A model generated the notes under the pieces. It saw only the letters and a program-made list of their open reading frames with translations, searched no databases and was not told the origin of the DNA. Made by a program: the position numbers and the translations under genes. Shown here piece after piece: positions 31,455 to 55,399 of a DNA stretch of 64,000 nucleotides. The DNA is from Bacteroidales bacterium (lineage in GTDB: Bacteria; Bacteroidota; Bacteroidia; Bacteroidales; F082), in assembly GCA_024681295.1 (NCBI GenBank), contig JAILBC010000132.1:12397-76396 (forward strand), written 5' to 3'. Numbering within the stretch: the first letter of the stretch is position 1; every line of letters starts with the position of its first letter.

Positions 31455-34400
31455 ATGGCAAAGAAAATAACTATCGAAGGAAGCGATATCCTTAGCGCAC
31501 TAACCGAAGCATGGGGTGGTGTAAACAACACCGGAGCAACCGTTACCGTACACGGGACCGAAGTGCCTGCTGGTGCCGAATGGGGCATAAACCGAGGTGA
31601 AATCGAGAGATTCATCAAGGAGCAGTTTTGTCTCAAAGCCGGTGTGTTCAGGTGGTATAAGCCAAACGATGTTAACTACTACAGCCTTGTAGTGTTCGCA
31701 AAGGCGTCAGACGCTACAGCATGGGACGCAGACCACAGCTTGACAAACTACCTTCAAATCATCCAACTTCCAATCAGTACTGTAGCCACCGACTCCTACA
31801 TCTGCCGTCTCGCAGCCAACAAGAGCACGAGCAACGCCTATGTGGTGAAGAACGGCGACAGCTTTGGTGTCAATCTGCGTTACCAGTCGGTGTTTGTTGA
31901 AGGTGCGACAAGTACCTCCAGCAACTACTCGGCTGATGGTGTTATCACCATCGAGCGCAGCGTCAACGCGGGTTCGTCTTGGGTGCAGGTGGCACGATTG
32001 GGAGGGCAGACCTCACTTGATCCATCAGCAGAGACATTCCCTATCGAAATTGACCTTGGAGAATATCTTGTCGCAAGTATGAACAACCGTTTCCGCATCC
32101 GTGCTTCATTCCAGTACACTGCAGATGGTGTGACAAAGACAAGCTATTCTTCGTACATCACATTCAATGTTTCATCGGTAAACCTCGCCATGTCGATGGC
32201 GACCGATTGGGCGGTGCCGATTACCGCAAATTCATCGACATCACAGATGGCTTTGAACTTCACCCTTTACGGAGCAGTCCAGAAGTATCTGACCATCAAG
32301 GTTGACGGAACGACATTCATCGACGCAAGCCCTTACGATGCAAGTGTCAACAGCGAGCAAACTGGCAATATCGCAATCACCGACTCCACTAAGGCCATCT
32401 TCACTCACGGCGTTCACGAAGTCCAAGCCTTCCTTACCTGCTCCAACGGTTGCGGTGGTACGTTGACTTCCGACGTCATGGTCTATCACTTGATGGTGGT
32501 CAACAGCTCCACCACCGGCGCAGACCTGACACAGCCGCATCTGCTTCTTCAGGAGATTGCAACATTGGTTGACAACTTCGTCCAGTCAAGGATTTGCAAG
32601 TATGCCGTATATCACCCGGACGGCGACGATATCGACCTGTCGCTTATCATCTGCTCTTCGGCCCAAAACTACATCACGAACCCATCAACGGAGTATTTCC
32701 GTGCAGAGAAAACGGCTGAGAGCGGAGAACAGTACGACCTCAACGCCACGTTGGAAATCGAGGACCAGGCCGGCAACACTCTCAACTCGTACTTGCAGGT
32801 ATTGAGGCACGACGGCGGCACTACGACCAACTTCCTGTATGAGACAACAGGCGTCGCCTATCAGTCCATACCCGTTGACAACACCGCTGGCTATGCCCCG
32901 ACTGCTGGAACGACTTTCTACCTCAACCCGAAGCTTCGCAACAACAGCGAGGCAAACCCGGAGCGCATCCTGAACGCCGCCAATGCCAATGCCGAAGTTA
33001 CCTCCACGTGGGAACACTTCAAGCTTGGTCAGCAAGACGGATGGCTGTTGGACTCTGAGGGTAACAAGATGTTGCGTGTACCGGCTGGCTGCAACCTCGG
33101 TATCAGCCTGAATCCTTTCTCCCAATTCCTGTCAACGCCAAACAGCGGCATGACAATGGACTTCGACATCAAGGTCAGCAACGTGACCAATGAGGACGAT
33201 CCCATCCTGAGAATCTGCGAGGCCAGCGGACAGAACTTCATCGGGCTTCGCCTGAAACCAATGAGAGGAACGATGACCACGGCCTCACACACGACGGAAA
33301 GCACCAGCGACTTCTCGTGGCAAGAGGATGAACGCACCCATATCTCAATCAACATCCACAATGCGGTCGCCCCCAACAGTGCCAACGATGGCTTGACCTC
33401 GGACGGCACCACACCGACTGGAACGCTTGCCCTTGTGAGGGTGCTGATTAACGGCGTCATCAACCGCGAATTCGTGTTCTCCACCACAAGCGCCACGGAG
33501 TTCTGCACAGCAGCGCTTTCCAACGGCGGCATCATCATCGGCCAGGAGGGTGCCGACATCGACATTTACGGCATTCGTATCTGGGCGTCGCAGCAGCTAT
33601 CCGCAAGAAACGTCGTACAGAACTATATCGCCACCATCCCGTCTGCAGCAGAAAAGGAAAGAGTGAAGAAAGAAAACGACATCATCGAAAGCGGCGTTGT
33701 CAACGCAGAGAAGGTGAAGGCCCTCGGTAAGAACGTGCTTATCTGGCACGGAGCCGAGATATGGCATGGCGCATCATCCACCCAAAACGGTTGGTGGGAG
33801 TTCTACCAATATGATGCAGACGGCCAGCTTATTCCGGAACTGAGCGGCACCATAGGAAAGGCCACTGCAAGCCTGCCGTCTAAAGGCCAGGGTACGACGG
33901 CCAAGACATACTACTACTGGAACATCCAGACGAAGATCAGCGACCTCACGACGCTTATCAACGTGCCGATTGCCGACCTGCATAGCAGCATCAGCGTAAC
34001 AATGCTCACCGACGAGCAGCTCGCCGCCTACAAGGAGGACAACGAGAGCGCCTCTAAGTGGTCGAGGGCCGCATACATCAAGGGCGGCAACCTTGGGAAG
34101 AACTTCCCGCTCGCAACGGAGAGCGCACAGGTGTACGAGGTTATAGACATCGACGGAGTGGACGGCGTGAGGGTCCCCGACGGATGGATCGACGGAAACG
34201 GAAAATACAGGGGCGTCGGCTACACGATCATCAACGGCGCACCGCTGGCGCAGAAGTTCGTCCTGAAAATCAACTATGCGTCCTCGATGCAGTCGCACAT
34301 CATCGGTGTCAACAAGCTCTACAACGACCTCCACAAGATCTATTGCGGCTCGAACGCCCTGCAGGCGACAACGCCCGGAGCGGTCGTGGCCAAGCACCTC

Positions 34401-37400
34401 GAGCCGTTCCTGTTCTTCACGCAGGCCAGTGACAACGCGGCTCCCGTGTATCGGGGACCCGGCGCCTGGGGCCCCGGAAAGATGGACAAGCCGACGTGGG
34501 GTTACGTGAAGTCTGCGTTCCCAAACTTCGCCATGTTCGAGGGTGCAGACAACAACAAGGAGCTCACCGACATGCGCGTCCCGTTCGACGACGCCGTTCA
34601 TGCCGGAGACACCTATCCGAAGGTGTATTACCACCCCGAGAACGAATGCTTCATGTACCGCGTCGACTCCGGGCTCCAGCACTCGCAGAAATGCATCGAC
34701 TTCGACGGAGGAAAGACCGTTGATGTCGAAACCACGGACGGCACGCACCTCTATCCTGGCGAATACCCGCACCCGAACCTCGTGTCGTTCCTGAAGAACG
34801 CGTGGAACTTCCTGTTCCTGCACAACCCGCGCGTCAAGCCGTTCATCACCAGCGGCGGAACGCTCGGTTCGTTCAGCGACTTCGCTTCCAGCGATGCGGC
34901 ACAGGACACCGGCAACAAGTACTGGTGTTCCGACTATAAGCTGTACCGCTATGACTTCGCAGACGGCGCCTGGGTCAATGCCGGCCTGTGGAATGGCACT
35001 TCCTATGATGAGGTTAATCTCCTCGACTCTTCGGCTGAGAGCGGGACGCTGGCATACGCCACGTACACCGCATGGAACGCCCTTACGAGCAACCAGAAGG
35101 CCGACTACGAGGGTTATGTGAACAAGGCGTTTATTTCCGGTATTGTCTCTCATGCGAAAGCCAACATCGGCAACTACTTCGTGGTGAATTCATTGAAGTT
35201 CCACTATGCTTTCGAGAACCATTTCATCGCCGGAACCGACAACTGTAGTAAAAACACTTACTACGTGCTTGTCCCGACCGGCGGCAGCATGGGGGCATGG
35301 ACCGACTGGAAGTTTGAGCTTCACCAAGACGACGTAGATACCGTTCTCGCCACCGACAACAGCGGATTGCAGACCAAGCCGTACTACATCGACCGTATGC
35401 ACCCCTATGCAGAGGATGACGTGAACGAGACGGATTCGCTCTACGAAGGGACTAACAACGTCCTGTTCAACCTATGTGAGGAAATGTGGGAGGATTCGCT
35501 GGAAATCAGCGACACCCTGAGAAGCATCCTTAGTTCGATGTCTGGTCTGACAGGTGGAACTGGCAGTGCGGTAAGCGACGGCATGAACGGCATATGGAAG
35601 GCCCTCAACCGCTATATCTTCGACGTTCAGCGTTACATCCCAGCCATGGCCTTCAATGAGGCTGCTAGGATCCGTTACGAGTTCCCGAAGCTTATGAACT
35701 ACACCAGCGACCAGAGACAGGTTGACCCGATCGAGCAGTCCATGGGCGACCAACTCCAGGCAGAACTTCAATGGATGAAGCGCCGTCTGGTTTACATGGC
35801 CTCTTATGCAGCATTCGGTGAGTTCGCCCCTGCAACGACGGTGAACACCGGTATCAGCGACCTTTCTCAGTCGTTCGCCATGGTTATGGCTGCGCTGCCA
35901 AACAGCACTACTCAGACGTCGCAATACACATTCCGGCTGGTCCCTCACCAGTGGATCTATCCTACTGCGGCCATGGCCCAAAGTAGCATCAACCCGCACG
36001 TCAGGGTGGCGCCAGGTGCCGCCAACATGCCAAACGGCTACTTCGAGATTGTCTTGAGTCCTACGGCACGAAGCGATGACGGTATCACCATCTACGGCAT
36101 CAACTACTACCGAAGCATCGGCAACATCGGCAACAACTGTTTCAACCCGGCTGGCACGCTGACCCTCAACGGCAAGCGCCTGACGGAATTCAAGGCCGAG
36201 CCATCGACGTACTATTCCACCACTGTTGGCGGCAACAGTATCACCGCCGAGGCATGGCGGCAACTTTCCGACACGGAGAAAGCCAACTACCTACCTGCGT
36301 TCCGTTGCTCAGGTGTCAATGTCGGTTCCGCTACGAGAATCGCAGACCTGTCGTTCAACGGCTGCTCTTCGGTGGGTGGCAACACCATCGACATCGGAGG
36401 CTTGTCAAGGGCTGCATCCATCGACTTGCGCTATACCGACATCCTTTCCGTCGCACTGCCTCAGACACCGACGCTGACCACGCTGAAACTTCCGGCAAAG
36501 CTTACGACGCTATCCATCATGAACTGCGGCTCGTTGGAAACCGTCTCAGTGCAAGGTTTCACTTCGATGACCAGTATGACGGTCAAGGGCTGCCCCCTGC
36601 TTTCAACGGCTACCCGTGCCTTGGTGCTGAGTCTGCACGATGGAGGGGCGGCTGTCACCAACATCGAGATAGACAACATCAACTGGCAGGCGCAGACCAT
36701 CGACGGAGAAACAATGCGCTGGCTGCTTGACGTTGGCGACGCTGGATCGTGCAAGCTTTCTGGTCGAATAGAAATGGCTTCGACTTCAGCAACGCCGTCG
36801 GGCCGTCTCTACTACGATGATGTGGCGCGTCTTATCAGGCGTTACGGCAACATCTATGACTCCACTATAGCCGTCACCGACAATGCGCTGTATGTGAACT
36901 TCGCCACCACCGCCGTCACAGCGGCTATGTTGGCTATCGAAGGACGAAAGTACATCAATCCTTCGGAGTTGACCGACAAAACCATCGTAAACGGCAATAT
37001 CACCGGCGGTTACTACAACGACCTGCAGCTTTTGGTCAACGGCACCGGCAACAATGTCGCTGCTGCGCAGAAGTCCGATGGAACGTGGACCCCGAATGTC
37101 AAGTGGACCATCGAGACTACCGGCATGTCATCGTATGCCGCCATCGAGGACATCTATTCTCCTGTCATCCATGTCATCTTGGTAAGCCAGGTGACGATGG
37201 TGGTTCGTGCGACACTTACCGACATTAATGGCAATGAGCGTTACGTCGAAAAGACCATCGGTCTATGGCGCCGTGTCCCTCAGGTCGGCGACTTTGCCTG
37301 GACTGACGGTGAATTCGATAACGAGGATGATACCTCGAAAGCACTCGCAGGCTTGGTTGTCATGCGTCAGATGTACACCTCAGACAACCAACTGACAACG

Positions 37401-38474
37401 GATCCCGCTCAGGCTGCTTGGTATAAGATATGGGTGAATTCGTTCTGCGGCGGCACAAACGCCAACGCGAACAACGTCACGATGCTTTCGTCATCCGACG
37501 GACAAAGCTCTCAATACGGCGACGTATCGACGCAGTGCTGGGGAATGTATCCCGTGACAGGCGGCAGTTCCGTAGGTCTCGACGATACGAAGTCCAACAG
37601 TGTCTATGTTGACGGCTTGCTTGCTGCCATTGCCACCGCAACCGGCAGAAGCGACGTCTTTGATACTCCGTTGAGCAACCTTACTGGTGACGTATACCTG
37701 AGAAAGGATGCGGCTGCAGTGGCTGCGGCTGGCGGCGGTATCGCCATGCAGGATGACACCCAACCCGACGGGTGGGCCGTGCAGACAGCAAGTTACATGA
37801 CCAACTTCGACAGCGAAGGCGAGCGCGACAAATTGATGGCCTATGCCGATACGGTGTTGCAAGCCGTGTTGGATTACATGAATATCAGCGACGATGACCT
37901 GCCGGATGACTGTAAGGACTCTCTTGGCAACACCCATCCGCAGACTCCACAGGCCCTTGCCGACCTCACTCAGATGTTGGTCCAGTATGCTGCGGACAAT
38001 GGCGTTTCCAACCCTGCTCGTTATCGCGAGTTTATGTTCTGCGCCGCGCGTCTGTGTGATGTATGGTGCCCCGCGGACGTAAGTGCCAACATCATCAACG
38101 GCACACGCATCACGGAAGCCCAGCTTGACGACCAGTACAAACGCGGCAAGTGGATGCTCCCGTCGTCGGCGTTGCTGGCGAGGATATTCAATTTCCTCGG
38201 CAACAGTCGTTCCGGTTACAACACTTCTGCGGCACCAAGTGCGGACTACGCCAATAATAATGTGGTGGAGGCCAAACTTGCACTGTTCTCTAATGCTATT
38301 GCAAAGGGTAGGACCGTACCTGTGAGTTACAGTAGTGGCCAGTGGAGCGGTACTGAGACCAGTCGCACCTACGCCAGGCTCGTGGGCTTCACCGATGGTC
38401 TCGCCATCGCCTACTACAACAAGTACTACGGGTACGTTGTTCGGCCTGTCGCAGCATTCAAATTTGTTCCATAA
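31455..38474 (+). CDS. Giant (2339 aa) multidomain DGR target protein, putative receptor-binding tail protein with C-terminal DUF1566/C-type-lectin-fold variable domain
   Basis: The VR occupies the last ~48 codons. The C-terminus GKWMLPSSALLARIF...YGYVVRPVAAF resembles DUF1566/CLec DGR targets. Internal LamG-like, CotH-like and LRR-like segments are described in the findings. Confidence 0.9.
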   Translation: MAKKITIEGSDILSALTEAWGGVNNTGATVTVHGTEVPAGAEWGINRGEIERFIKEQFCLKAGVFRWYKPNDVNYYSLVVFAKASDATAWDADHSLTNYLQIIQLPISTVATDSYICRLAANKSTSNAYVVKNGDSFGVNLRYQSVFVEGATSTSSNYSADGVITIERSVNAGSSWVQVARLGGQTSLDPSAETFPIEIDLGEYLVASMNNRFRIRASFQYTADGVTKTSYSSYITFNVSSVNLAMSMATDWAVPITANSSTSQMALNFTLYGAVQKYLTIKVDGTTFIDASPYDASVNSEQTGNIAITDSTKAIFTHGVHEVQAFLTCSNGCGGTLTSDVMVYHLMVVNSSTTGADLTQPHLLLQEIATLVDNFVQSRICKYAVYHPDGDDIDLSLIICSSAQNYITNPSTEYFRAEKTAESGEQYDLNATLEIEDQAGNTLNSYLQVLRHDGGTTTNFLYETTGVAYQSIPVDNTAGYAPTAGTTFYLNPKLRNNSEANPERILNAANANAEVTSTWEHFKLGQQDGWLLDSEGNKMLRVPAGCNLGISLNPFSQFLSTPNSGMTMDFDIKVSNVTNEDDPILRICEASGQNFIGLRLKPMRGTMTTASHTTESTSDFSWQEDERTHISINIHNAVAPNSANDGLTSDGTTPTGTLALVRVLINGVINREFVFSTTSATEFCTAALSNGGIIIGQEGADIDIYGIRIWASQQLSARNVVQNYIATIPSAAEKERVKKENDIIESGVVNAEKVKALGKNVLIWHGAEIWHGASSTQNGWWEFYQYDADGQLIPELSGTIGKATASLPSKGQGTTAKTYYYWNIQTKISDLTTLINVPIADLHSSISVTMLTDEQLAAYKEDNESASKWSRAAYIKGGNLGKNFPLATESAQVYEVIDIDGVDGVRVPDGWIDGNGKYRGVGYTIINGAPLAQKFVLKINYASSMQSHIIGVNKLYNDLHKIYCGSNALQATTPGAVVAKHLEPFLFFTQASDNAAPVYRGPGAWGPGKMDKPTWGYVKSAFPNFAMFEGADNNKELTDMRVPFDDAVHAGDTYPKVYYHPENECFMYRVDSGLQHSQKCIDFDGGKTVDVETTDGTHLYPGEYPHPNLVSFLKNAWNFLFLHNPRVKPFITSGGTLGSFSDFASSDAAQDTGNKYWCSDYKLYRYDFADGAWVNAGLWNGTSYDEVNLLDSSAESGTLAYATYTAWNALTSNQKADYEGYVNKAFISGIVSHAKANIGNYFVVNSLKFHYAFENHFIAGTDNCSKNTYYVLVPTGGSMGAWTDWKFELHQDDVDTVLATDNSGLQTKPYYIDRMHPYAEDDVNETDSLYEGTNNVLFNLCEEMWEDSLEISDTLRSILSSMSGLTGGTGSAVSDGMNGIWKALNRYIFDVQRYIPAMAFNEAARIRYEFPKLMNYTSDQRQVDPIEQSMGDQLQAELQWMKRRLVYMASYAAFGEFAPATTVNTGISDLSQSFAMVMAALPNSTTQTSQYTFRLVPHQWIYPTAAMAQSSINPHVRVAPGAANMPNGYFEIVLSPTARSDDGITIYGINYYRSIGNIGNNCFNPAGTLTLNGKRLTEFKAEPSTYYSTTVGGNSITAEAWRQLSDTEKANYLPAFRCSGVNVGSATRIADLSFNGCSSVGGNTIDIGGLSRAASIDLRYTDILSVALPQTPTLTTLKLPAKLTTLSIMNCGSLETVSVQGFTSMTSMTVKGCPLLSTATRALVLSLHDGGAAVTNIEIDNINWQAQTIDGETMRWLLDVGDAGSCKLSGRIEMASTSATPSGRLYYDDVARLIRRYGNIYDSTIAVTDNALYVNFATTAVTAAMLAIEGRKYINPSELTDKTIVNGNITGGYYNDLQLLVNGTGNNVAAAQKSDGTWTPNVKWTIETTGMSSYAAIEDIYSPVIHVILVSQVTMVVRATLTDINGNERYVEKTIGLWRRVPQVGDFAWTDGEFDNEDDTSKALAGLVVMRQMYTSDNQLTTDPAQAAWYKIWVNSFCGGTNANANNVTMLSSSDGQSSQYGDVSTQCWGMYPVTGGSSVGLDDTKSNSVYVDGLLAAIATATGRSDVFDTPLSNLTGDVYLRKDAAAVAAAGGGIAMQDDTQPDGWAVQTASYMTNFDSEGERDKLMAYADTVLQAVLDYMNISDDDLPDDCKDSLGNTHPQTPQALADLTQMLVQYAADNGVSNPARYREFMFCAARLCDVWCPADVSANIINGTRITEAQLDDQYKRGKWMLPSSALLARIFNFLGNSRSGYNTSAAPSADYANNNVVEAKLALFSNAIAKGRTVPVSYSSGQWSGTETSRTYARLVGFTDGLAIAYYNKYYGYVVRPVAAFKFVP
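38329..38457 (+). repeat. DGR variable repeat (VR)
   Basis: 129 bp aligned to 39109-39237 at a fixed offset of 780. The 21 mismatches all fall at positions that are A in the TR. The last 26 bp are identical. Confidence 0.95.
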
Positions 38475-38481
38475 GGAACAA
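38464..38481 (+). promoter_or_regulatory. Hairpin immediately 3' of VR (candidate DGR target-recognition cruciform)
   Basis: ttgttcc-ATAA-ggaacaa: a 7-bp stem with a 4-nt loop that contains the target gene's TAA stop, 6 nt after the VR end. Confidence 0.45.
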
Positions 38482-38496
38482 GCATTTTACCTTGAC

Positions 38497-39002: not shown

Positions 39003-39108
39003 TTAAATATTTTTGTTATGAGCGGAGTGTCATATAATCCGATGAATGGGCGGCTTACTGCGGGACGTAAAAAGTCCTTCAGTTACGAAGGTGCAAAGCC
39101 GCAAAAAG

Positions 39109-39237
39109 ACAGTAGTAACCAGTGGAGCGGTACTGAGAACAATCGCAACAACGCCAGGAACGTGAACTTCAACAATGGTAACGCCAACAACAACAACAAC
39201 AAGTACAACGGGAACGTTGTTCGGCCTGTCGCAGCAT
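39109..39237 (+). repeat. DGR template repeat (TR)
   Basis: Adenine-rich copy of the VR containing 17 AAY (Asn) codons in the VR reading frame. It lies directly upstream of the RT domain. Confidence 0.95.
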
Positions 39238-39251
39238 CCCAAGATTATGAC

Positions 39252-40560
39252 GTGCCTGAGTCCTTTGTCAATTCCGTATGGGAAGCCTATTACGATTGTC
39301 TTAGAGGCAAGATGCGCTCGAAGCAAGCCGTGGAATACATGGAAATAGCCAACGAGGACATCCCCGTGTTGGCACAAGAATTATGGAGCGGGACTTACCA
39401 TCCTGGTACATCGACCTGCTTTCTTAGTCCACTATCCGAAACTAAGAGAGGTATTCGCGGCGAACTTTCGGGACCGCATCGTGCATCACTGGATATGCCT
39501 GCGCTTGAATCCGTTGTTCGAGGAACGCTTCGAGAAGCAAGGGAATGTGTCGTTCAACTGCCGCAAGGAGTTTGGGACGGAGAAAGCCGTGCTTCATGTA
39601 GCGGAAGGAATGAAGAGGGTGAGCGACTGCTACCACACCCCGGCATGGGTGTTCAAAGGAGATCTCGTTGGATTCTTCATGTCAATCGACAAGGATTTGC
39701 TTTGGTATCTCTTGGAACGCTTCATCCGTCGCCAGCGCAAGCGCTTCGAGCGGGAAGGATGGAAAACGCTCGACTTCTCAATTCTTGCACGCCTGAGGAT
39801 GACACAGATGCCCGAAATGTATTGGGACATCCTTATGAGAACGACAATGGTGGTTGTCATGCACCATCCGGAACTGGATTGCATACTCAACACAGACCCG
39901 AGCGAATGGCACAACCTGGCGAAAAACAAGAGCCTGTTCACATCGCCCACCGGAGAACCCATCGGAAACCTTACGACGCAGTTGTTCGCCAACTTCCTGA
40001 TGTCGTTCTTCATCAACTTTGTTCAATGGCTGTTCAGAGGAAAGAATTACTGCATGGCGCAGTTTGTGGACGATTTCGTCATTGTGTGCGACAACCTCCG
40101 CTTCCTCGTGGAAAGCATACCGAAGATAGAGGAATTCCTGCATTCCAAACTTCGCCTGACGCTCCACAAGCACAAGAGATACCTGCAACCCGTCTCTCAC
40201 GGTGTGAAGTTCGTCGGCACCTACATCAAGCCTGGCAGACTTTATCTTTCCAACCAAACGCTTTCGAGGTTGAAGGAACGTTGCCACGGGTTTGCGATCA
40301 CCATGGCAGAGAGCGAATTGGAGGATTGGGACAGGGAACGCATGGAACAGACATTCAACTCGTACCTTGGATTCACAAGGAAGAGAATGACGTACAATTA
40401 CAGGAAGGAAAACATAGAAGGAATGGGACACGACTTCTGGCGTAACTTTTACGTCCGAGGCAGCTATGAAGTAATCAGAAGAAGAAAAAACATAAAACCG
40501 AGAGACAATGAATATCTACGAACAACAGCCGCCGGTGGTGGCGACAAACAAATTGCTTGA
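39252..40560 (+). CDS. DGR reverse transcriptase, reading frame interrupted by a +1 shift at 39423-39427
   Basis: The 39018 frame gives SFVNSVWEAYYDCLRGK...YHPGTSTCFL. The +1 frame continues VHYPKLREVFAANFRDRIVHH, NCRKEFGTEKA, FKGDLVGFFMSID, PIGNLTTQLFANF and QFVDDFVIV (YxDD-type). A GTG at 39252 is a possible start. Confidence 0.85.
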
Positions 40561-40903
40561 AGGCTATGTCACGTACATCAACCTTGGAGCGAGAAAACTG
40601 ACCAAAGCCGAACGCAGGGAAAACGAAATCCCTGACAAGGTGATGGATGAAGAAGGTAACGAGGTGGCGAAACAGGCGTGGACGGCACACACCATCGTTT
40701 ACAAACACAAGGATCCTTTAACCGAAGCCGACTACGGACCTCTTGTCGCAGCAATAGTCAGAAGCCGATATTCCGCTGATGACGTTGAAGCAATCATGCT
40801 CAACTACTCAGCCGACCAGACCGAAGAGCATCGGTTGGAGTTCAACCAACTCCAGACATGGAGGCAGGTCGCGAAGGAAGCCGCGAGGGAAGCCATCGGA
40901 TAA
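40508..40903 (+). CDS. Hypothetical protein downstream of DGR RT
   Basis: 131-aa ORF overlapping the RT 3' end by 53 nt. Confidence 0.45.
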   Translation: MNIYEQQPPVVATNKLLEGYVTYINLGARKLTKAERRENEIPDKVMDEEGNEVAKQAWTAHTIVYKHKDPLTEADYGPLVAAIVRSRYSADDVEAIMLNYSADQTEEHRLEFNQLQTWRQVAKEAAREAIG

Positions 40904-55319: not shown

Positions 55320-55326
55320 GTGGTTG

Positions 55327-55399
55327 TGACCCGGCTGGGGCTCGAACCCAGGACCCCAACATTAAAAGTGTTGTGCTCTACCTGCTGAGCTACCGAGTC
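55327..55399 (-). tRNA. tRNA-Lys (anticodon UUU)
   Basis: Hand-folded 73-nt cloverleaf. Acceptor GACTCGG/CCGGGTC (one G-U pair); D arm GCTC-AGCAGGTA-GAGC; anticodon arm CAACA-CTTTTAA-TGTTG; T arm CTGGG-TTCGAGC-CCCAG. CCA is not encoded. Confidence 0.93.

Follow-up and report, generated by a model that had tools for sequence, protein, structure and literature searches.

Comparative evidence that a phage diversity-generating retroelement probably makes its reverse transcriptase by +1 ribosomal frameshifting

Introduction

A 64,000-nucleotide (nt) stretch of DNA from a Bacteroidales bacterium (GenBank assembly GCA_024681295.1, contig JAILBC010000132.1, positions 12,397 to 76,396 of the forward strand; the window hereafter) carries a diversity-generating retroelement (DGR), in which the reverse transcriptase (RT) gene is divided between two reading frames. 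How could such an element obtain its RT? A sequence-only reading of the window had assigned the break to a Ty1-like CUU-AGU-C site and had offered three explanations: programmed +1 frameshifting, a recent inactivating insertion of one nucleotide that left a frozen variable region (VR), or an assembly indel. Here, we compared the locus with its relatives. Judged from sequence comparison, the element is very probably an active phage DGR that depends on a +1 ribosomal frameshift to make any RT.

The RT gene is divided between two frames

The RT open reading frame (ORF) starts at ATG 39018. In this frame, referred to as the zero frame, the codons TGC 39417, TTT 39420, CTT 39423 and AGT 39426 give ...YHPGTSTCFLS.... 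In the +1 frame, GTC 39427 begins VHYPKLREVFAANFRDRIVHHW..., which continues through QFVDDF to a stop codon at 40558-40560. The codons and both frames described by the earlier reading were thus confirmed from the sequence, and the same break was found in 25 contigs (see below). When joined, the two halves read ...TSTCFLVHYPK..., which is the same as the consensus of >100 uninterrupted RT homologues; the continuous junction TCFLVHYPK proposed earlier therefore stands, and it aligns without a gap to EFLVYEPK of 8ub7.

The joined RT is 513 amino acids (aa) long and matches the Pfam family RVT_1. Its best sequence match among solved structures was the Bordetella bRT (PDB code: 8ub7), with cflv/hypk aligned to EFLV/YEPK (the slash marks the break). 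The predicted structure of the joined RT had a mean predicted local distance difference test score of 85.5 and placed the junction within strand 58-64 of a beta-hairpin; its top structural match was again the DGR bRT 8ub7, with a target-normalised TM-score of 0.83. The +1-frame part contains an IGxxxSQ-type motif, PIGNLTTQ; motifs of this type are diagnostic of DGR-type RTs. As modelled, the joined protein is a good RT. No second RT was found within the window.

The break is fixed in a clade of relatives

To collect relatives, protein searches were made with both the joined RT and the zero-frame product of the window, metagenomes were scanned for the shift-site pattern, and cluster members were looked up. 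The joined RT retrieved >4000 homologues, the best 120 of which were nearly all uninterrupted (470-530 aa, 59-80% identity), and those uninterrupted homologues that were inspected read ...TSTCFLVHYPK.... The nearest relatives, P0001 (92% identity) and P0019 (81%), were represented by C-terminal fragments only, and their contigs share the break. The search with the zero-frame product added nine more end-to-end clusters, which led to deeper shifted lineages, and scanning metagenomes for the shift-site pattern gave 30 matches, three of which were real (L017, L021 and L025). Altogether, 25 contigs, each from a different sample or assembly, had the identical break; they fall into seven lineages (the window lineage, L001, L007, L131, L133, L134 and L137) with RT identity to the window down to 78%. 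None of the 25 contigs had a stop codon in either of the frames used. The comparison of orthologous RT genes that the sequence-only reading had called for thus revealed a conserved break.

All 80 relatives from IMG/VR were in frame, and a tblastn search of GenBank phages gave 27 RT relatives, each as a single-piece match; no close relative was found in GenBank phages by blastn or megablast. Scans of IMG/VR with two shift-site patterns returned 0 and 2 matches, the latter by chance and neither of them an RT, and a scan of the Genome Taxonomy Database (GTDB) genomes returned 2 chance matches. One apparent shifted gene, P0113, which starts exactly at VKYPK, was rejected as an in-frame gene truncated at a contig edge.

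Automatic annotation misses the joined gene. The GenBank annotation and the callers give the window a 351-aa C-terminal 'RNA-directed DNA polymerase' (MCR4849094.1). The 21 members of the 90%-identity cluster that holds the window RT ORF were all 241-369 aa long (15 listed), and none was full-length. Gene calls for L131-L137 and the window disagree, reporting either a 436-492-aa zero-frame ORF or a 329-369-aa C-terminal RT fragment, and none of the automatic calls for shifted loci reports a full-length RT.

The extra base sits in a short T run, the kind of place where a sequencing or assembly indel might be suspected. However, the 25 contigs agree across projects and assemblers, and the unshifted frame has been purged of stop codons in the shifted lineages only (see below). 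An assembly indel, the third explanation offered earlier, is therefore effectively excluded by 25 independent contigs that share the break, and we regard the chance of any such error as negligible.

Both parts of the RT are under purifying selection and the element is active

The ratio of nonsynonymous to synonymous substitution rates (dN/dS) was calculated by the Nei-Gojobori method. Between the window and L001, the 62 zero-frame codons before the break gave a dN/dS of 0.038 (dS 1.09), and the 359 +1-frame codons after the break gave 0.040 (dS 1.04). Deeper lineage pairs gave a dN/dS of 0.02-0.12 in both segments, with dS saturating; between shifted lineages, the zero-frame part ranged from 0.04 to 0.12 and the +1-frame part from 0.04 to 0.10. 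When the downstream DNA was read in the zero frame instead, dN/dS was >1. From these substitution patterns, both halves of the RT appear to be translated in their own frames under strong purifying selection.

The VR, which lies at the C-terminus of the target gene and repeats the template region (TR), has continued to change within the shifted clade. Eleven shifted contigs, with RTs 97-99% identical to that of the window, share one TR and carry 3 distinct VRs; the VR of the window is a fourth. Over an aligned stretch of 122 nt in the 11 contigs, all 163 mismatches between VR and TR fell at TR adenines and none at other bases, as did all 29 polymorphic VR positions. The VRs of the window and L021 differ at 26 positions in 134 nt, whereas their flanks differ at 1-3 per 100 nt. 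Furthermore, the TR of the window has an extra AAC unit relative to L021, L121, L123, L001 and L017, and its VR exceeds theirs by 3 nt as well (the compared TR/VR stretch is 97 nt in the window and 94 nt in the five relatives). As this private expansion of the TR is also found in the VR, TR-to-VR transfer must have taken place after the split from genomes that were already shifted. By these sequence comparisons, the element is demonstrably active within the shifted clade.

These data bear directly on the proposal that a recent one-nucleotide insertion inactivated the gene, leaving an RT pseudogene and a VR that merely records past activity. The failure of gene callers and GenBank to give anything beyond RT fragments would agree with this proposal. 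On the other hand, the segments before and after the break both have dN/dS values of 0.02-0.12, at a dS that ranges from about 1 to saturation, adenine-directed VR diversification is seen among genomes 97-99% identical, the 3-nt TR expansion has been copied into the VR, and the frames used contain no stop codon in 25/25 contigs. Relaxed selection, further disruptions and a static VR, which would mark a pseudogene or a decayed DGR, were not found. We therefore consider inactivation scarcely credible, and the frozen-VR explanation of the earlier reading falls with it.

Another possibility is a split RT, in which an N-terminal piece and an internally initiated C-terminal piece assemble. Gene callers do place GTG or TTG starts 1-20 codons past the junction. 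However, the +1 frame has no conserved start at or before the junction: a stop codon lies 24-29 codons upstream of the site, and ATG, GTG and TTG are absent before the junction in 6 of the 7 lineages. Purifying selection in the +1 frame also acts on the codons that separate the junction from the earliest start that could be used. Just past the junction, 18 codons encode identical amino acids in the window, L001 and L007, with 12 of the 18 varying synonymously. Moreover, the junction lies inside a beta-strand, and joining the halves restores the consensus without adding or removing a residue. An RT assembled from two pieces is highly improbable.

The frame probably changes on a Phe codon

The junction reads TGC TTT C TTA GT(C/T) in the window, L001 and L007, TGC TTT C TTG GT(C/T) in L137 and L134, TGC TTT C CTT GTA in L133, and TGC TTT C CTC GTC in L131. 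The Cys codon (UGC) is conserved in the zero frame only, where the +1 frame would give Ala, and the Leu is conserved in the +1 frame only, where it varies synonymously as TTA, TTG, CTT and CTC. The switch must therefore fall on the Phe codon between them. Both UUU (zero frame) and UUC (+1 frame) encode Phe, so that every shifted lineage reads ...CFLV...; TTT is the minority Phe codon of this genome (19%). The zero-frame codons after UUU vary (CTT-AGT, CTT-GGT, CCT-TGT and CCT-CGT, encoding Leu-Ser, Leu-Gly, Pro-Cys and Pro-Arg).

In the mechanism that we propose, ribosomes would begin at ATG 39018 and read the zero frame through the TR-encoded extension and the RT N-terminus to UGC 39417 and UUU 39420. 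Peptidyl-tRNA-Phe would then re-pair one base forward, from UUU (with a G-U wobble) to UUC 39421-39423 (Watson-Crick), and decoding would resume at UUA (Leu) and GUC (Val) and continue to the stop at 40560, yielding the 513-aa RT. Two frames each under purifying selection of its own, together with a conserved and re-pairable site in seven lineages, were found at this locus. Programmed, obligatory +1 frameshifting is strongly supported by these comparisons, and a slip of P-site tRNA-Phe from UUU to UUC is its likely form.

The Ty1-like slip originally suggested, in which peptidyl-tRNA-Leu moves from CUU 39423 to UUA while an infrequent AGU waits in the A site, would give the same product in the window, L001 and L007, where CUU-AGU-C/U is present. 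AGT shares with TCT the lowest usage among Ser codons (9% of Ser; 6.5 per 1000). However, CUU-AGU is absent from the sister lineages, which have CUU-GGU, CCU-UGU or CCU-CGU, and a Leu-tRNA slip is impossible in the CCU lineages. The Leu codon at the junction evolves synonymously in the +1 frame, which also speaks against this route, and in-frame CTT-AGT occurs in the 2339-aa target gene at the expected frequency and is not avoided. We consider the Ty1-like slip unlikely. Of the first explanation offered earlier, the programmed +1 shift is thus favoured by the evidence, but its CUU-AGU-C site is lacking in L137, L134, L133 and L131. Nor is A39426, the base that was to be skipped, the best candidate for the extra base, which is more readily explained as a T inserted into TGC TTC CTC GTC.

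Several observations weigh against the tRNA-Phe slip as a complete account. No conserved slow A-site codon, Shine-Dalgarno-like element or downstream structure that might stimulate a shift was found: the codon in the zero-frame A site varies between CUU, a common codon (18.6 per 1000), and CCU; no Shine-Dalgarno-like element lies upstream of the site; and the 94 nt downstream of the site showed no advantage in folding over shuffled sequences (z = +1.8). For the window lineage taken by itself, a slip from CUU to UUA may also occur and would yield the same protein. A hairpin predicted by RNAalifold on the slip site itself would already be melted with UUU in the P site, and it is therefore not an obvious stimulator. 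No Rfam element matched.

In this hairpin, CUUUCUUAGU (39419-39428), at the slip site, pairs with ACUAAGAGAG (39441-39450). Its core, CUUUC/GRGAG, is kept in all seven shifted lineages by wobble-compatible changes (RNAalifold on three and on seven lineages); its minimum free energy is about -12 kcal/mol with z only -1.4 to -1.8, and no compensatory double changes were seen. The 3' arm covers the Lys-Leu-Arg-Glu codons about 20 nt downstream, and hairpin-compatible codons there (a purine-ending Arg codon, then GAG) were present in 7/7 shifted lineages and in 11/43 in-frame relatives. We regard this predicted hairpin as a weak, unexplained feature. An extended upstream signal was also considered, based on six codons invariant in three lineages (the longest run, with p of about 0.004 for a pre-specified position), and was dropped when L134 was found to read ACG TCC ACA at this place.

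Removal of stop codons from the unshifted frame

After the shift site, the zero frame of the window stays open for 339 codons, ending at TAA 40443-40445, and the whole ORF is 475 aa long. Stretches of 312-350 codons without a stop follow the site in 7/7 lineages and 25/25 contigs. This long open off-frame is the most unusual feature of the locus. The number of stops to be expected was estimated by shuffling synonymous codons within each RT. The expectation was 10.7 stops for the window, 9.7 for L001 and 15.6 for L007, and none of 20,000 shuffles of each reached zero; it was 13.5 for L137, 9.6 for L134, 8.5 for L133 and 10.4 for L131, again with no shuffle reaching zero in 10,000 each.

The codon choices behind this result can be read directly. 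Before AA/AG/GA codons, T-ending RT codons numbered 0/94, 0/98 and 0/104, whereas T is in the third position of 15-26% of the remaining codons (Fisher p = 5e-7 to 1e-11); for the window alone, 0/94 compares with 17% elsewhere (p=5e-7). The corresponding frame contains 11 and 10 stops in the in-frame sisters L005 and L006 and a mean of 21 (minimum 1) in the 80 IMG/VR relatives, and in the window, genes other than the RT contain such stops at 2.0-6.7 per 100 codons. An antisense ORF of 217 aa inside the RT gene (39778-40431, minus strand) is probably a by-product of this skewed codon choice.

Does the 475-aa zero-frame product itself have a function, which would keep the frame open by dual coding? 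The frame is indeed open in every shifted lineage. However, its sequence is free to change: the zero-frame product is 50-64% identical between shifted lineages, compared with 82-93% in the RT frame, and its dN/dS is >1. The dS of the RT frame is not reduced in the overlap (1.04, compared with 1.09 in the non-overlapped N-terminal part), the polypeptide matches no family, and its length after the site varies from 312 to 350 codons. A functional zero-frame product is thus rather unlikely. At the level of sequence, the openness of the zero frame is selected and the sequence of its polypeptide is not. The earlier dismissal of the off-frame product as nonsense holds for its unconserved amino acid sequence but missed the strong selection on openness (0 stops against 8.5-15.6 expected).

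What, then, could the open frame be for? Its openness suggests that a large share of ribosomes stay in the zero frame, in which case the slip would be inefficient and the RT dose low; these ribosomes would read on for about 340 codons to TAA 40443. The purged stops point to termination inside the RT gene as the event that would be harmful. By keeping the RT stretch covered with ribosomes, a frame on which they can read on would spare the mRNA Rho- or RNase-dependent loss and keep downstream genes expressed; loss of coupling is an alternative cost that an open frame would avoid. The genes downstream are co-directional and abutting, in a tightly packed tail-gene operon. A separate gene in the third frame, conserved in in-frame and shifted relatives, often has its ATG overlapping the RT stop (ATGA). 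With this arrangement, protection against polarity or loss of coupling would be the most economical reason for the open frame. Tentatively, and with somewhat less than even confidence, we propose that the stop-free frame is a 'read-on track' adapted to inefficient recoding in a bacterial or phage operon.

One observation tells against this proposal: the zero frame does not reach the next ATG but stops 38-155 nt short of it (62 nt in the window). Support comes from another instance in which a frame from upstream stays open through a gene. In L131 (716-2319), L133 (3397-5000) and L134 (3373-4967), the +1 frame of the RT has lost its stop and runs for 531-534 codons through the downstream 132-aa gene. 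The -1 frame of that downstream gene has 0 stops in these three lineages, compared with 5-10 in the window, L001, L007 and L137.

Origin of the extra base

The in-frame sisters read TGC TTC CTT GTC and TGT TTC CTC GTC at the junction, and L131 has exactly the sequence that results when a single T is put into TGC TTC CTC GTC. By this comparison, the founding mutation was probably a T added to a short T run. A single T insertion would break the frame and create the slip-prone UUU-C in one step. Four shifted sequences representing three lineages were monophyletic in 286/300 bootstraps.

With seven lineages, support for a single origin is lost, which counts against the simplest history: six lineages cluster, L137 pairs with the in-frame P0003 over very short basal branches, and monophyly of all shifted sequences was recovered in 2/300 bootstraps. 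The T may have come or gone repeatedly, unless the tree simply fails to resolve this radiation. The in-frame sisters have fewer -1-frame stops than their shuffles, 11 against 19.0 in L005 (P0002) and 10 against 15.3 in L006 (P0003). This deficit is only a hint, either of a relic of a recently reverted shifted state or of a general context bias.

The same two sequences bear on whether the frame is restored before translation in a minority of molecules, by RNA polymerase slippage or by variation of the T run in DNA (a phase-variable RT). That P0002 and P0003 interleave with shifted sequences at the base of the group, through gain or loss of the T or for want of resolution in the tree, and that they show the stop deficit, would agree with such a mechanism. 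However, the run of three Ts is far shorter than known transcriptional slippage sites, which need about seven or more identical bases, and the rate of DNA indels would be far too low to sustain the purifying selection observed. The purged zero frame also implies many ribosomes on uncorrected mRNA. Restoration before translation is very unlikely, and the ribosomal +1 shift remains the preferred reading.

Relation to known systems

The single precedent found in full-text literature searches is a remark on Quimbyvirus, the DGR RT of which lies in overlapping ORFs for which programmed frameshifting was inferred by the authors (Benler et al., 2021, Microbiome, PMC8008677). Both cases concern a DGR RT of a gut Bacteroidetes phage in overlapping ORFs, with activity deduced from adenine-specific VR variation among near-identical genomes. 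The paper proposes two frameshifts over three frames and gives no site, direction or mechanism (PMC8008677). By that description, the window differs in that a single +1 shift suffices and the ORF in the third frame is an independent gene in in-frame relatives. The window element also comes from a Bacteroidales bacterium metagenome-assembled genome and from a different set of metagenomes, and the stop-free zero frame seen in its clade was not reported in that paper.

The yeast elements Ty1 (CUU-AGG-C) and Ty3 are also retroelements with the RT placed in the +1 frame, where only a fraction of ribosomes would make it. However, the Ty1 heptamer logic (a tRNA-Leu slip and a hungry AGG) is not borne out across the clade and fits the window, L001 and L007 only. 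In Ty elements, the zero frame encodes functional Gag and stops soon after the site, whereas in the window the interruption falls within the RT domain and the zero frame extends over about 340 codons.

UUU followed by a pyrimidine is reportedly a +1 shift-prone sequence in Escherichia coli, as Schwartz and Curran are said to have found in 1997. A natural example on bacterial ribosomes is the +1 shift of Yersinia YopN-TyeA, with tRNA-Phe at UUU followed by a pyrimidine (PMC4914553). The E. coli and YopN-TyeA shifts are low-level or accessory, whereas that of the window clade appears to be obligatory for the sole RT and is conserved in the clade.

Among eukaryotic viruses, the PA-X protein of influenza A has a short shifted ORF of 61 or 41 codons. 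It arises by a +1 shift at UCC_UUU_CGU, where P-site tRNA-Phe moves from UUU to UUC (PMC3498833), and amalgaviruses shift +1 at UUU_CGN (PMC5052127). These sites need a rare CGN codon in the A site and eukaryotic ribosomes, in contrast to the unconserved CUU or CCU of the window clade, and in both systems the zero frame gives the main product.

In corrective or compensatory frameshifting, a coding indel is offset at the site that it creates, and the unshifted product is presumed useless (Atkins et al., 2016, PMC5009743). By analogy, insertion of a T followed by a slip on the resulting UUU-C would fit this class, as the passages on it in that review define it. The cases cited in those passages are mostly mitochondrial, together with a herpesvirus thymidine kinase, and purging of the unshifted frame is not described there (PMC5009743).

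The element resembles the BPP-1 DGR (bRT-Avd, 8ub7) in adenine mutagenesis between TR and VR, in its C-terminal VR and in the RT fold. However, the BPP-1 bRT is one uninterrupted 328-aa ORF with the TR upstream, whereas in the RT family of the window the TR lies inside the RT ORF. The protein in the position of Avd has no detectable sequence similarity.

A whole clade of phage DGRs thus appears to make its mutagenic RT only via a ribosomal slip, which would act as a throttle on a potentially dangerous enzyme, and the slip site shares its RNA with the template. Since gene callers give a truncated RT or a meaningless zero-frame ORF, such DGRs are likely to be scored as defective in surveys. Complete, lineage-specific removal of stops over 312-350 codons is unusual and accessible to experiment, and it suggests that the fate of non-shifting ribosomes can be under strong selection. 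If the read-on proposal is true, it would describe for the first time such a rule in the architecture of recoding sites, and a long stop-depleted off-frame would be a signature for hidden frameshift-dependent genes.

Organization of the DGR locus

The features of the locus are listed in Table 1. Differences between TR and VR are confined to adenines, and in the window all TR/VR mismatches fall at TR adenines; a DGR-type RT lies beside the TR, the VR is at the C-terminus of the target, and signs of homing are present. By these features the locus is a textbook DGR. DGRs often have a hairpin that follows the VR, and here an 8-bp hairpin overlaps the stop codon of the target gene.

Table 1. Coordinates of the DGR and neighbouring features in the window
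Feature	Coordinates	Strand	Remarks
DGR target gene, 2339-aa tail-fibre-like protein	31455..38474	+	VR at C-terminus
Variable region (VR)	38329..38462	+	134-nt direct repeat of TR; ends 12 nt before target stop
Hairpin TTTGTTCC ATAA GGAACAAG	38463..38482	+	Directly 3' of VR; hairpin scan
Candidate accessory (Avd-position) ORF, 157 aa	38529..39002	+	Assigned by position only
RT gene, zero-frame part	39018..39422	+	ATG, TR-encoded N-terminal extension, RT N-terminus; ends at Phe TTT
Template region (TR)	39109..39242	+	Inside RT ORF
Proposed +1 slip site UGC UUU C	39417..39423	+	Sole junction sequence invariant in 7/7 shifted lineages; putative slip
Predicted hairpin on slip site	39419..39450	+	RNAalifold
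Stop-free zero-frame continuation	39423..40445	+	Overlaps RT frame; 340 sense codons from CTT 39423, then TAA
RT gene, +1-frame part	39424..40560	+	Leu TTA 39424, FVDD, stop; Pfam RVT_1
Downstream gene, 131 aa, third frame	40508..40903	+	Overlaps RT 3' end

In the window, the ORF in the Avd position separates the VR from the TR, and every relative has an ORF of 144-151 aa in the same place. It had no match in Pfam, NCBIfam, PHROGs or PDB sequences, and it may be a divergent or a different accessory protein.

In the window, L005, L006 and most homologues, the RT ORF begins upstream of the TR, and the TR is translated as an N-terminal extension. The RT mRNA is therefore also the template RNA, and ribosomes must cross the TR. 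Many RT homologues carry a precomputed Lcl_C (PF07603) match, and the N-terminal start MSGVSYNPMNGRLT is conserved. Elsewhere in the window, the sole tRNA gene is a tRNA-Lys with anticodon UUU (55326-55399, minus strand).

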